A DNA stretch of 64,000 nt, taken from the NCBI GenBank assembly GCA_963707915.1, contig OY970178.1:352001-416000 (forward strand). Direction: 5' to 3'. Numbering within the stretch: the first letter of the stretch is position 1; every line of letters starts with the position of its first letter. Position numbers and translations under genes: made by a program. Positions 50,189 through 54,293 of the stretch are shown here, piece after piece. Under the pieces are notes generated by a model. The model made no database searches and was not told the origin of the DNA. It was given only the letters and a program-made list of their open reading frames with translations. Source of the stretch: Candidatus Eiseniibacteriota bacterium. GTDB lineage: Bacteria > Eisenbacteria > RBG-16-71-46.

Positions 50189-51109
50189 ATGGAGCCACGC
50201 TACGCGATCGGCCTCGACCTGGGAGGCACGGACCTCAAGGCCGGGCTGGTGTCGAGCCGGGGTGAGGTCGCGCACTTCCAGCGCCGGCCGGCGCGCGCCG
50301 GGGAGGACGCGGACGCGCCGCTCCGGGTCATCGCTCGAGCCGTGAGCGAGCTGCGGGCCGCGGCCGGTGGCCCGCTCGTCGGCATCGGGCTCGGCTGCCC
50401 CGGCGTGATCGACCCGGCCAGCGGGGCGCTGGTGGGGCGCACGGCGCACCTGCCCCACTGGGACTCGCTGCCGCTGCGCGCGCTGCTGGCGGAGCGGCTC
50501 GGCAGCGGCCTGGTGGTCGAGAACGACGCCAACCTGGCCGCGCTGGCGGAGGACCGGGCGGGTGCGGCCCGCGGCGCGCGGGCCTCGCTCACGGTCACGG
50601 TCGGCACGGGCATCGGTTGCGGCGTGATCGTGGAGGGCCGCGTGCTGCGCGGGGCGCACGGGGGAGCCGGGGAGCTCGGCCACCTGCCACTGGACGGGCG
50701 CCACCCCTGCCGCTGCGGCGTGCCGGGCTGCGTGGAGCCCGAGTGCTCGGGCAGCGGACTCGCGGCGCGGGCCGCGGAGGCGGGGCTGGCGGCGCCGGAC
50801 GCGGCGGCGGTGTTCGCCGCGGCGTCCGCGGGAGACGCGCGCGCCACGCGGCTGATCGAGCGCATGACCGACCGCCTGGGCGCCCTCATCGCGGCGGCGG
50901 TGCAGCTGTTCGACCCGGACGTGGTCGTGGTCGGGGGCGGGGTCGCGAACGCGGGCGAGGCGCTGATGGACCCGCTGCGCGCGGCGGTGAAGCGCTACGC
51001 GCTGGAGTCGCACCACCGCGGCCTGCGCATCGCGCCCGCGGAGCTCGGCGAGCGCGCGGGCGTGGTGGGCGCCGGGCTGGCCGCGTGGGACGCGGCGCCC
51101 AGGAGCTAG
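50189..51109 (+). CDS. ROK family sugar kinase
   Basis: DLGGT, ENDANLAALAE, GTGIG.G, GELGH, CRCG..GCVE. Confidence 0.93.
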   Translation: MEPRYAIGLDLGGTDLKAGLVSSRGEVAHFQRRPARAGEDADAPLRVIARAVSELRAAAGGPLVGIGLGCPGVIDPASGALVGRTAHLPHWDSLPLRALLAERLGSGLVVENDANLAALAEDRAGAARGARASLTVTVGTGIGCGVIVEGRVLRGAHGGAGELGHLPLDGRHPCRCGVPGCVEPECSGSGLAARAAEAGLAAPDAAAVFAAASAGDARATRLIERMTDRLGALIAAAVQLFDPDVVVVGGGVANAGEALMDPLRAAVKRYALESHHRGLRIAPAELGERAGVVGAGLAAWDAAPRS

Positions 51110-51132
51110 CAGCTAACGTGGACTGCGCATGA

Positions 51133-51184
51133 CCCGCTGCTGCGAACGCGAGCCGATCGCGAGCTGACCGCGATCGGCAGCGGG
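51133..51184. terminator. Hairpin after the ROK gene and at the distal end of the repeat array
   Basis: GCCGATCGCG / AGCTGAC / CGCGATCGGC inner stem, flanked by CCCGCT...AGCGGG. Confidence 0.45.
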
Positions 51185-51208
51185 CCTGTGCGTCGCTGCC
51201 GGCGAAGA

Positions 51209-51394
51209 TGTCACCCGTGCCCGGGGAGTGATCTGCTACGGGCGTCGCCAGTCGCAACCTCGATGTCGGCGATGGTGTCACCCGGGTCCCCGGTCTGCGG
51301 TGTCACCCGCGTCCCCGCTCGGGACTTCGATTCGGGCGGAAGGTGTCACCCATGTCTCCGGTCTGATCTGTTACCAATCTAGGCGGTCTGGACA
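51209..51394. repeat. Tandem array of three ~51-bp IS481-end-like units (period 67-68 bp)
   Basis: Units 51209-51259, 51276-51326, 51344-51394 each start TGTCACCC and match the IS end at 52718-52769. Linkers are TCGATGTCGGCGATGG and TCGATTCGGGCGGAAGG. Confidence 0.85.
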
Positions 51395-51404
51395 TCTGAA
51401 GCAA
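51376..51404 (-). promoter_or_regulatory. Junction promoter formed across abutted IS ends
   Basis: Minus strand TTGCTT (in the IS end), 17 bp, TAGATT (in array unit 3). Confidence 0.6.
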
Positions 51405-52769
51405 CCGGGGACATGGGTGACAGGACAGACCGGGCACATGGGTAACACATTCTAGCTTCCATAACGGCGGCGACGACGTCTGCTCAAGGCAGGATCAACG
51501 ATGGGTTCGAGCCGCCCAAAGTGGCGGGGTCCGCGGTCGGTGGCCTGCTTGAGATCTAGCAGTCCGATCGGCACCCAGCCGAAGTGGACACGCCACCGGC
51601 CATCGTCGCAGGGCTCGAGTCCGACCCGTTCGCCGACGAGGCAGTTGCTCACGTACCACTGCGTGGTGCCGAAGGTGATCACGCCGTTGGGATAGGCCAC
51701 CCGGGTCTCGAAGTGTCGCGGGTACTCTGGTTCGGGGAGCTCGCGCGGGTACGAGCGAAGCGATGGGCGGTAAAGCGCGGCCGGCACCTCCTGGCCGAGC
51801 GCCTCGTGCGGCCGCTCCTGGTTGTACTCCGTCTGGAAGCGATCGAACGCGCGTTGCTGGGCGCTGAAGCTCGAGCGCGGCGGTCTGGCGGTCTCGGCTT
51901 TCAAGGTGCGATGCATGCGCTCGTGGCGCCCGTTCTGTTCGGGACGACCTGGCATGATGCGTTCGGGACGGATCCCGAGTCGGATCCACCAGACCGAGAG
52001 ACGCGACAGTCCGCCCGGGGCGAGCGTCGAGAACGGCGGCCCGTTATCGGTGCGGATCGCCCTCGGCAAGCCGTATTCGGTGAAAGCGGACTCGAAGACG
52101 CGCCGGACATGCTGAGTGAGCGGACGACGCAGGGCGCGGCAGCGAAGGAGCAGGCGACTGTATCCATCGCTGATGGTCAGCGGATGACAGCGTTCACCCC
52201 GGCGACCCAGCGGGAAGTGGCCCTTGAAGTCGGCACACCAGACGGCGTTGGGTGCGTCGTACTGCCGCAGCCGGTCCCCGTACGGTGAGCTGCGCCGGAC
52301 TCGCCGGCGCGGGCGAACCAGTCCGCTGCGCCTCAGGATGTCGCCGATCGTGCTGGCCGCCGGGAGCGCGACCGGCGGCCGTTCCCGCTTCAGCACCACC
52401 CGCACCTTGCGTGGTCCCCAACGCGGATGGCGACGTCGGATCGCGACGATCGCCTGCACGAGGTCGGCGGCGACGGCGTTGGGATGAGAGTGCGGCGCGC
52501 GTGAGATCTCCTCGAGGGCCGCGACCCCGTCGGCCTCATAACGACGGACCCACTTGTACCCCGTCTTCCGGCTGACCCCGAAGTCGTGGCACAAGTCGGA
52601 GAAGCTGGCCTCCGCCTGCAGGTAGGCGGCAATGAACTTCACTCGTTCAGACATCCAGTCGGTCCTCGCCCAGGGCATCGTGTGGTCCTCCTCGAACCAC
52701 CCATGATGCCCGCGGGCTGTAACCCATGTCCCCGGTCTGATCTGTTACCAGTGTGCCCGGTCTGAACCA
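51397..52769 (-). mobile_element. IS481-family insertion sequence (1373 bp)
   Basis: TG...CA termini; imperfect ~51-bp inverted repeats (51397-51447, 52718-52769), each with two ACCGGG.ACA..GGT.ACA subrepeats; TC dinucleotide on both flanks. Confidence 0.88.
51452..52678 (-). CDS. IS481-family DDE transposase (HTH plus integrase core)
   Basis: MPW, FGVSRKTGYKW HTH, WGPRK, W.ADFKG (D), RTDNG.PF (D), QNGRHERMHRTLK (E), YN.ERPHEAL; GAGGAGG RBS. Confidence 0.95.
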   Translation of the reverse strand: MPWARTDWMSERVKFIAAYLQAEASFSDLCHDFGVSRKTGYKWVRRYEADGVAALEEISRAPHSHPNAVAADLVQAIVAIRRRHPRWGPRKVRVVLKRERPPVALPAASTIGDILRRSGLVRPRRRVRRSSPYGDRLRQYDAPNAVWCADFKGHFPLGRRGERCHPLTISDGYSRLLLRCRALRRPLTQHVRRVFESAFTEYGLPRAIRTDNGPPFSTLAPGGLSRLSVWWIRLGIRPERIMPGRPEQNGRHERMHRTLKAETARPPRSSFSAQQRAFDRFQTEYNQERPHEALGQEVPAALYRPSLRSYPRELPEPEYPRHFETRVAYPNGVITFGTTQWYVSNCLVGERVGLEPCDDGRWRVHFGWVPIGLLDLKQATDRGPRHFGRLEPIVDPALSRRRRRRYGS

Positions 52770-53003
52770 TCGATTTCGCTTGACAGGTGTCGGGGCTCGC
52801 GATGCGCCACGACTGCCGGGCTGTTCGCGCGGCTCGCAGGAAGTCGCAGGTCGAGCGGAGTACGCATCGCGGCCGCGATCGTGAACGCGTTCTCCCGCCG
52901 AGCCTCGTTGTGCGACCTGCCGGGCGCTGCGAGAGCTGAAGACCGGCATGATATGAATGGCCTCGCACTGCCCCCGTGACCCGCCCCCGCGCGGAGTCAC
53001 ACG

Positions 53004-54293
53004 ATGGATCGCTACTCCCTGGCCCACGTTCCCGACCCGGTCCTGCTGCGCGAACTGCGCTCGCTCGTCGCCCAGGACCGCGTCACCACCGCCCTGCTCG
53101 TCGCCCACCTCGGCGAGGTCGATGCCCGGCGGCTCTACGCCGAAGCCGGCTACCCCTCGATGTTCGCCTGGTGCGTGGAGCGGTTGGGCTTCTCCGAGGA
53201 CAGCGCCTACAAGCGCATCCGGGCGGCGCGGACCGCCCGCGAGTTCCCGGACGTCCACGCGATGCTGGCCGACGGCCGGCTGCACCTCGGTGGCGTGGTC
53301 GCGCTGGCGCCCTGCCTGACCGCCGCGAATGCGGGGGAGTTGCTGGCCGCCGCGGCGCACCGGAGCCGCGCGGGCATCGAGCAGATGCTGGCCGAGCGGT
53401 TCCCGCGGCCCGACCTGCCGGGCCTGATCCAGCCCGTACCCCAGCCGCCGATTAGTACGGATGTTCAGTGTGATCAAATTTCACTGGCCCCGGGGCCAGT
53501 GATTTCCAGTCCTGCTAAACACGAGGCCGCATCTCCCGCATTCGGTGAGCGCCAGGTCACCCCTCTCGCTCCGCAACGCTTCGCCGTGCAATTCACCATG
53601 GACCAGGAAGCGCACGCCGACCTGCTCTACGCCCAGGCCCTGCTCGGGCACGCGGTGCCCTCCGGCGACCCGGCCGCGGTGTTCGCCCGCGCGCTGAAGA
53701 CCCTGATTGCGCAGCTCGAGCAGCGCAAGTTCGCGAAGACCGACCGGCCCCGCCGCTGCCGCGCCAGCGACGACCCGCGGCACGTCCCCGCGGAGGTGAA
53801 GCGCGCGGTGTGGGAGCGTGACGGTGGCCGCTGCACGTTCGTGGGCACCGGCGGGCATCGCTGCGAGGCGCGCACGCGGCTCGAGTACGACCACGTCGAG
53901 CCGGTGGCCGACGGCGGGCGCGCGACGGTGCGCGGCCTGCGGCTGCGCTGCCGGGCGCACAACCAGTACGAAGCCGAGCGACACTTCGGGCGCGACTTCA
54001 TGGCGGCCAGGCGGGAGAGCGGCGGACGTGGGTCGGCTCCGAACGGGGCCGAGCGACACGGTGGGCGCGACTTCATGGCGGCCAGGCGGGAGCGGAGCGG
54101 GAAGCCCGGGCTGCCTTCGCACCTGGCGGAGCTGGTGCCCTGGCTGCGAACGCTCGGGCTCCGCGCGGAGGAAGCGCACCGGGTCGCGGAGAACTGCGGC
54201 GCCCCACCCGACGCCCCGCTCGAGGAACGCGTGCGCTACGCGCTGCGCTGCTACGGCGGTCCGCGCGGCGCGGTCACACGTCCCGCGGCCTGA
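53004..54293 (+). CDS. HNH endonuclease with a DUF222-like helical N-terminal region
   Basis: LLVAHLGEVDARRLY...GYPSMF.WC...LG.SE..AYKRI; V.ERDGGRC, RC, EYDHVEP..GG, LRCRAHN. Confidence 0.85.
   Translation: MDRYSLAHVPDPVLLRELRSLVAQDRVTTALLVAHLGEVDARRLYAEAGYPSMFAWCVERLGFSEDSAYKRIRAARTAREFPDVHAMLADGRLHLGGVVALAPCLTAANAGELLAAAAHRSRAGIEQMLAERFPRPDLPGLIQPVPQPPISTDVQCDQISLAPGPVISSPAKHEAASPAFGERQVTPLAPQRFAVQFTMDQEAHADLLYAQALLGHAVPSGDPAAVFARALKTLIAQLEQRKFAKTDRPRRCRASDDPRHVPAEVKRAVWERDGGRCTFVGTGGHRCEARTRLEYDHVEPVADGGRATVRGLRLRCRAHNQYEAERHFGRDFMAARRESGGRGSAPNGAERHGGRDFMAARRERSGKPGLPSHLAELVPWLRTLGLRAEEAHRVAENCGAPPDAPLEERVRYALRCYGGPRGAVTRPAA
53973..54092 (+). repeat. 45-bp direct repeat (period 75 bp) inside the HNH gene
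   Basis: 53973-54017 vs 54048-54092 with 3 mismatches; encodes AERH[FG]GRDFMAARRE twice. Confidence 0.9.

Follow-up and report, generated by a model that had tools for sequence, protein, structure and literature searches.

The described behaviour nearest to that of the locus reported here is found in the ISAba32 subgroup of the IS1202 family, whose members insert with their IRL 5 bp from xrs and generate a 5-bp target duplication (abstract of bioRxiv 10.1101/2022.12.17.520857; Siguier, Rousseau, Cornet, Chandler). Next closest is the targeting of inverted repeats (IRs) by IS30: junctions between two IRs are reactive and give rise to deletions that have the edge of a single IR as their starting point, and the genome of E. 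coli K-12 carries a truncated IS30 copy that consists of the last 184 bp of the element (PMC9333248, in the part drawn on here). Insertion sequences (IS) that target the repeated extragenic elements REP/BIME have been described as well (PMC1525189).

The locus compared with these systems lies in the window, that is, the whole 64,000-nt stretch of DNA that was analysed, which belongs to a genome represented by a single 3.62-Mb contig. Three 51-nt units are arranged in tandem beside an IS481-family element, which is followed on its other side by an HNH/DUF222-like endonuclease module. We consider it likely, with some room for doubt, that this array is a stack of truncated IRL fossils that arose by repeated insertion of the IS at a fixed site and in a fixed orientation at the edge of the HNH module. 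The features of the locus are the following:

51209..51259, plus strand: unit 1, fossil of the transposase-proximal IS end, read as the oldest
51260..51275, plus strand: linker 1, 16 nt, TCGATG...
51276..51326, plus strand: unit 2, fossil end, subrepeats at 51276 and 51301
51327..51343, plus strand: linker 2, 17 nt, TCGATT...
51344..51393, plus strand: unit 3, fossil end, read as the youngest
51394..51396, no strand: target duplication, left copy, ATC
51397..52768, minus strand: IS481-family IS, 1372 bp, TGAAGCAACC...GGTCTGAACC, boundaries set by flank comparison
51397..51447, minus strand: transposase-distal end (conventional IRR), subrepeats 51401-51422 and 51426-51447
51452..52678, minus strand: transposase gene, 408 aa, IS481 family
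52718..52768, plus strand: transposase-proximal end (conventional IRL), template of the units, 22-nt subrepeats at 52718 and 52743
52769..52771, no strand: target duplication, right copy, ATC
52772..52784, plus strand: target motif GATTTCGC-TTGAC (left edge of HNH module), with TTGAC occupying 52780-52784
52772..54293, plus strand: HNH/DUF222-like endonuclease module, leader of about 232 nt and 429-aa ORF (53004-54293)

The insertion sequence and the adjoining array

The IS is present in five genomic copies that are 100% identical over positions 1-1372 and are flanked, in all five cases and on both sides, by a 3-bp target duplication (ATC, ACC, ACC, AAC and GGT). Its far end begins with TG (TGAAGC) and its near end finishes with ...GAACC; the base after the near end is an A in four of the five copies, but this A belongs to the target duplication. 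The IRL (52718-52768) is identical in all five copies, and the far end forms an inverted repeat (I1) with 52718-52761 that is 82% complementary over 44 nt. The transposase is encoded by one 408-aa ORF without frameshift and combines a DDE (rve) core with an N-terminal HTH/leucine zipper region (Pfam domains rve, rve_3, HTH_32, HTH_28 and LZ_Tnp_IS481). It scores 229 bits against the NCBIfam model NF033577 (transpos_IS481, cut-off 224) and 119 bits against the IS3 model (cut-off 160), and matches the ISNCY_2 model only weakly. By family model, single ORF and short duplication, the element is a member of the IS481 family. Target duplications in this family range from 2 to 15 bp and mostly measure 6 bp (PMC10045372, in the part drawn on here). 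The 3 bp found at all five copies, and also at a full relative of the IS in another genome (L032), lie at the short end of that range. A 3-bp duplication is typical of most members of IS3, the sister family of IS481.

Two further remnants were observed in the genome. To the left of IS copy c5, a 22-nt duplicate of the far-end terminus (genome 1799682-1799703, 21 of 22 nt identical) adjoins the living copy, with an end-like subrepeat and the spacer GCG in front of it; no other far-end fossil was seen, and this one implies a different deletion route. At genome 2075068-2075319, away from any HNH module, lies a fragment of a diverged IS relative (71% identity over 185 nt) together with one end-like subrepeat.

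Aligned without gaps to the IS end at 52718-52768, units 1, 2 and 3 are identical at 35, 37 and 42 of 51 positions, respectively, and a repeat search of the window grouped them with this end into a direct-repeat family of four copies (51209, 51276, 51344 and 52718), the three units being spaced 67 and 68 nt apart. Across the whole genome, both strands included, only 16 of 7,247,168 segments of 51 nt reach an identity of at least 34/51, so that all three units lie far beyond chance. A profile made of 18 such ends from other genomes assigned them 4.2, 22.0 (E 7e-07) and 42.2 bits, compared with 65 bits for the IS end itself. For unit 1, this score corresponds to an E of 0.25 in a 14.5-kb search, and the genome-wide profile search returned no match to it at E<=10; its terminus reads GCAACC, compared with GAACC at the IS tip. 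The units of the array are real and graded toward the IS, with unit 1 not significant by profile.

Both ends of the IS, as well as units 2 and 3, contain two 22-nt subrepeats set 25 nt apart. These are putative transposase-binding sites, which would give the ends an architecture like that of Tn7 or Mu; in unit 1, the first subrepeat alone is recognisable. The outer subrepeat of unit 3 carries the variant CCAATCTAG, which also occurs in the unit of locus L009 from another genus and is absent from units 1 and 2. Linker 1 shows a weak likeness to the IS-internal 18 nt that precede the end unit (z 1.8) and scores z -0.1 against the module motif; the corresponding values for linker 2 are z -0.3 against IS-internal sequence and z 0.2 against the motif.

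Most of what the original prediction had said about the anatomy of the array was borne out. The three units match the end of the adjacent IS, their similarity to it is highest in the IS-proximal and lowest in the distal unit, and the linkers of 16-17 nt are as described; the two subrepeats at 25-nt spacing that every unit was said to contain were confirmed for units 2 and 3, unit 1 showing just the first of them. The proposal that the array pre-dates the insertion is supported by the ATC duplication on either side of the IS (51394-51396 and 52769-52771). It had also been considered that the array might be an ordinary subterminal part of every copy of this IS. The stretch shared by the five copies is exactly 1372 bp and their far-side flanks differ; the array lies outside the 1372-bp element, which rules out that it is subterminal IS sequence.

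Unit 3 and the IS far end together form an inverted repeat (I5) that is 95% complementary across the 3-bp spacer, and can be drawn as a long imperfect hairpin (51337-51453). Two matches to Rfam miRNA hairpins obtained in 50800-53200 were rejected, being below threshold (36.7 and 28.2 bits compared with gathering scores of 100 and 94) and explained by this inverted repeat. On the minus strand, unit 3 and the far end have the geometry in which circle junctions of the IS3 and IS30 types assemble a promoter. A scan of 51100-53050 with the sigma-70 consensus found no promoter-like site, so that '-35 box' can be used for TTGAC as a label only.

In short-read data, 151-nt contigs from two public runs (X1 and X2), which possibly derive from the source sample and hence are not independent of it, match 51233-51383 without any difference and span both linkers. 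Four public runs, which cover the locus in part, yielded neither a contig bridging unit 3 and the IS nor the joint of an empty allele. A junction of the c2 type was seen in run X10 and a 1437-nt IS-like contig in run X3.

The left edge of the HNH module

The genome contains six HNH paralogs with 54-72% amino acid identity to the window copy. Homology between the right flanks of all five IS copies sets in with the base that directly follows the IS, and these flanks lead into HNH paralogs; among the HNH modules, homology extends from the IS tip to near the stop codon. At the sixth paralog, both IS and unit are absent. The transposase-proximal end always faces the module, and the distance from the IS tip to TTGAC is 11 nt in four copies and 15 nt in the fifth. 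When the window genome and the loci of relatives are taken together, TTGAC lies exactly 11 nt away from 24 of 31 non-redundant module-proximal tips. At other tips, the distance is 8 (two tips), 10, 15 or 18 nt, and two further tips are followed by a doubled TTGAC, the second copy of which, read by eye, is about 9 and 11 nt away.

The modules carry this motif independently of the IS and its fossils, as is seen in loci that were chosen by their HNH protein alone (80 loci, of which the 53 with at least 400 nt of upstream sequence were surveyed). The TTGAC motif is found at the same place in at least 49 of the 53 modules, most of them without units; a unit is present in five, and a short tip-like trace in three more. 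Modules without a unit resemble the empty site reconstructed for the window, an example being L063 with ATCGATTTCAC-TTGAC. What had been predicted to be a third linker of the array, on the far side of the IS, is this left-edge motif of the HNH module and not a member of the array. The letters TGAAG in front of the motif of the empty sixth paralog were considered as a remnant of the IS and dismissed, the same letters being present at the motif of other unit-less modules.

Two loci among the relatives show additional events at the motif. In L021 (1975-2030), the tip heptamer CTGGACC is doubled between unit and motif, and TTGAC is thus 18 nt away; the duplicate may be what is left of a later copy, a fossil of 7 nt, or else a product of slippage. 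L031 is an apparent exception to the distance of TTGAC, as another IS has inserted into the motif right after GAATTTGAC. This second IS lies on the reverse strand, about 300-1550 nt beyond the unit, and its 417-aa ORF looks like an ISL3-type transposase.

The module itself, about 1.5 kb in length, occurs six times in the genome (paralogs of the window copy at genome 1940893-1942465, 1796718-1798310, 2457354-2458794, 3295949-3297360 and 3191898-3193511) and several times per genome in relatives. Its leader of about 230 nt contains the left-edge motif GA(A/T)TTnnnCTTGAC and, roughly 40 nt ahead of the start codon, a box resembling TGATATGAA. Among the aligned members, Pfam recognised HNH in four of eight and DUF222 in one of eight, and a sequence search of the PDB with the HNH alignment gave no match; in the genome collection, 456 of 597 pattern-matching stretches encode a relative of the DUF222-like/HNH ORF. 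The modules have the look of an independent gene family of the selfish or mobile kind. A composite transposon of IS and HNH gene was considered and rejected: the IS copies are identical, whereas the modules are only 67-92% identical at the DNA level, and no end-like motifs were found downstream of the HNH genes with up to four mismatches allowed.

Related loci and the origin of the array

Forty relatives were searched by DNA, and most matches are confined to the final 50-130 nt of the IS. Units served as the search key for loci, an ascertainment that favours fossils that have kept the IRL. Public relatives that carry these elements are MAGs of Candidatus Eisenbacteria; the unpublished genome G026 is the basis of no claim. 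Sixteen unit-bearing loci were fetched from 12 genomes; an HNH homolog invariably lies about 230-260 nt beyond the unit, and the transposase gene is absent between unit and HNH gene in 15 of them, remnants of about 36 and about 234 codons being found in L009 and L002. Solo units thus occur in relatives at the same site and without transposase, either singly or in stacks of two to four (three in L014; four in L006, including two 104-bp repeats; two each in L018, L096 and L013).

IS-internal sequence frequently occupies the far side of units. Its length ranges from about 11 and 25 nt (L014) through 53 nt (L006), about 77 nt (L018) and about 97 nt (genomic copy c4) to about 780 nt in L002, where it extends to transposase codon 234. 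At all 13 array junctions that were read, the older unit stops at its tip or not more than 1-2 nt from it and is followed directly by other sequence, often IS-internal. The far-end terminus of the IS, TGAAGCAACC, was found at none of these 13 junctions, and only copy c5 keeps 22 nt of it. Module-proximal units score at least as high as distal ones in c1, c2, L018, L013 and L012 and in two of the three steps of L006; polarity is flat in L014 and L096, and L096 is also counted as a locus in which polarity fails.

A full relative of the IS, with 84% transposase identity and the duplication CTA/CTA, is found in L032. Its near tip is 11 nt from the motif, and its far side borders on unique DNA with no fossil. 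At the far end of this element (L032:690-715) there is one subrepeat only, as if two had recombined with a loss of 25 nt, and the near-end fossil of L012 shows the same 25-nt loss.

To these loci we added 79 from many phyla that were chosen by transposase alone. The double-subrepeat end is present on 39 of the 79, and an HNH neighbour in three only, including the two closest relatives with enough flank (L114, 69% identity; L116, 64%). In the closest transposase relatives from other phyla, namely L114, L116 and L115 (63% identity), the same tip is separated by 10-11 nt from TTGAC or TGGAC; an HNH gene lies beside two of the three, and the flank of the third is too short to tell. The target habit is accordingly the mark of a subclade, with transposases at least about 63% identical, that extends beyond one phylum.

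If the array is a stack of IRL fossils, its formation may be envisaged as follows. The IS would land 8 nt plus the 3-bp duplication, 11 nt in all, upstream of the conserved TTGAC, and each newcomer would enter between the module and the IRL of the previous copy, so that older copies would be displaced from the module and decay. The polarity of the array would follow from the newcomer always being on the module side. The tip of the resident IRL, the 3-bp spacer and the incoming IRR together have the geometry of an IS-circle junction. Transposase could then cut the junction of fossil tip and new end and attack a site inside the newcomer, which would delete the stretch from the old tip to the attacked site and fuse the old tip to IS-internal sequence. 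Such an adjacent deletion into the newcomer is proposed because IS30 shows deletions at IR-IR junctions and because the junctions read here end at tips, where random deletions would rarely stop; judging from junction anatomy, the truncation of the older copies was probably made by transposase in this manner. Single fossils that abut unique DNA, as in L008, were not truncatable by an older tip, and at least one further route of truncation must therefore exist.

The insertion in L032, which occurred without a resident unit, identifies the landing pad as the module motif and not the array, contrary to one of the functions that had originally been proposed for the latter. The alternative proposal of a record of repeated end-targeted insertions fared better, in that the units are readable as stacked older IRLs; the targeting is to the module motif and not demonstrably to resident ends. 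Since the variant CCAATCTAG is common to unit 3 and L009, the stack would record visits of different IS lineages and not decay only, and since L009 is from another genus, some of the apparent decay would reflect lineage difference instead of age. The near-equal length of the linkers in the window array (16 and 17 nt; 18 nt in c2) fits tandem duplication, a deletion hot spot or independent events alike. For the two 104-bp repeats of L006, whose 51-nt units differ from each other at one base only, simple tandem duplication may be the better explanation.

Other origins of the array have to be weighed against this one. In the manner of IS30, transposase bound to a resident end unit might capture an incoming element and insert it 3 bp beyond the resident tip, which we regard as rather unlikely. 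It would account for the end-like sequence that adjoins four of the five copies (c1-c4) across a 3-bp spacer and for the fact that the only unit-less module of the genome is also the only one without an IS, and IS30 gives IRL-IRR junctions only, the geometry seen here, in the account of PMC9333248 drawn on. However, five occupied modules and one empty module are not significant (1 in 6 by chance), the resident trace at c3 extends to only about 15 nt (5.5 bits), and the point of insertion is fixed relative to TTGAC, as the 24 of 31 tips at 11 nt indicate. Moreover, L032 sits at the motif without a resident unit, and the first insertion at any module was necessarily unit-free. What the locus has in common with IS30-type targeting is thus the geometry of the junction, and not a resident end that directs insertion. 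Unlikely, too, is that a single block of fossil and linker, 67-68 bp in length, was multiplied by slippage or unequal exchange and then drifted without separate insertions. The regular period of 67 and 68 nt, the common beginning of the linkers (TCGAT) and the near identity of the two 104-bp copies in L006 speak for such a duplication; the linkers of L014, in contrast, are unequal (25 and 11 nt) and made of IS-internal sequence, the lineage-specific variant that unit 3 has in common with L009 is missing from units 1 and 2, and duplication followed by drift does not predict a graded similarity to the living IS.

It seems very improbable that the units belong functionally to the HNH module, for instance as a site of regulation or of protein binding, and that the IS ends are merely similar to them. 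The argument in its favour comes from G020, in which a solo unit is identical to the IS end of the window genome at 50 of 51 positions, although the HNH proteins are only 46% identical and nothing else in that genome matches the IS. A functional part of the module would not be expected in only 5 of 53 HNH-selected loci (with a short trace in three more); units also often carry the transposase 5' region, and the double-subrepeat end exists on IS relatives of other phyla without an HNH neighbour (39 of the 79 loci, compared with three with HNH). We give hardly any credence to a misassembly, to the array being ordinary subterminal IS sequence or to a target duplication as long as about 25 bp, of the IS1202 type. 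The left flank of c2 does repeat 22 nt of the IS end, and some IS481 and IS1202 relatives duplicate 15-29 bp (PMC10045372 and bioRxiv 10.1101/2022.12.17.520857, each in the part drawn on here), but all five copies have one and the same outer subrepeat at the right end, in contrast to their differing left flanks, and consequently the subrepeat belongs to the IS and not to a duplication. A subterminal origin conflicts with the 1372 bp to which the identity of the five copies is confined, and an assembly error with the exact reproduction of 51233-51383 by short contigs of two runs and with comparable arrays in other assemblies.

Returning to the stack of fossils left by fixed-site insertion, a more far-reaching version of it can be formulated, which we put forward tentatively and hold to be possible but doubtful. 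Solo fossils with intact tips would not be mere debris: they would pair with the far end of a newcomer to form a circle-like junction, and its resolution by transposase, through attack on the newcomer, would behead the latter and add a unit; the module edge would be a dedicated attachment site of an IS481 lineage in at least 3-4 phyla, and the stack would act as a trap in cis. If this were true, the fossil stack would both record and inactivate incoming copies.

Comparison with described systems

The locus constitutes a natural record, kept in multiple genomes, of a one-gene IS that has been strictly site- and orientation-specific over long times, and what is recorded is that the IS has come to one and the same nucleotide again and again, losing its body there and leaving one end behind. 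Its target, the edge of a widespread multi-copy HNH/DUF222 module, was previously unremarked. For annotation, the fossils explain why short conserved repeats of 51 nt precede HNH genes in these MAGs, and the locus offers a simple system for asking whether junctions of fossil and new end inactivate IS outside the E. coli model elements. In the literature searched, we found no description of a stacked array of end fossils for an IS481-family element, nor of an HNH/DUF222 module edge as target of this family. The original statement that no such array had been described is accurate only in part: site- and orientation-specific insertion of the related IS1202 family beside xrs and IR targeting by IS30, with deletions driven by the junction, are in print.

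With the ISAba32 subgroup, the element shares its relation to IS481, sequence-specific insertion in one orientation that brings the IRL to within a few bp of a short conserved site, a target duplication of small size (5 bp in that subgroup, 3 bp in the present IS) and a multi-copy target that is itself tied to mobile cassettes; here, too, the same IS end faces the conserved site at a fixed distance (11 nt at 24 of 31 tips, and likewise in L114 and L116). It differs in that its transposase scores as IS481 family, in that the site is a Xer site there and the left-edge motif of an HNH/DUF222 module here, and in its stacks of end fossils, of which the abstract of bioRxiv 10.1101/2022.12.17.520857 makes no mention. 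Like IS30, it places a new copy beside a resident end such that an IRL-IRR junction with a fixed short spacer results. IS30 belongs to another family, however, its spacer is 2 bp compared with 3 bp here, its behaviour is known from experiments on plasmids and the K-12 chromosome whereas the evidence here is comparative only, and a resident end is not needed for insertion by the present IS (L032).

A further case is IS911, the transposase of which, when made without OrfA, reportedly inserts beside sequences that resemble its own ends, in work associated with Loot and colleagues (2002) and Turlan and colleagues (2004). IS481 elements are not known to possess OrfA. Nothing indicates that the IS here needs an end-like target. 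The IS that target REP/BIME resemble it in using a short, multi-copy and non-essential chromosomal sequence as a safe target, yet theirs is a palindromic repeat, and the present IS targets a protein-coding module at its edge, at a distance precise to the single nucleotide. Tn7-like elements stack at attTn7 in a fixed site and orientation, with the newest beside the target gene and older remnants further away. They are large transposons with TnsD as target selector and with target immunity, whereas the IS here has one gene; the order of the stack is the same, the newest element adjoining the target gene and the older ones, with their end remnants, lying farther from it.
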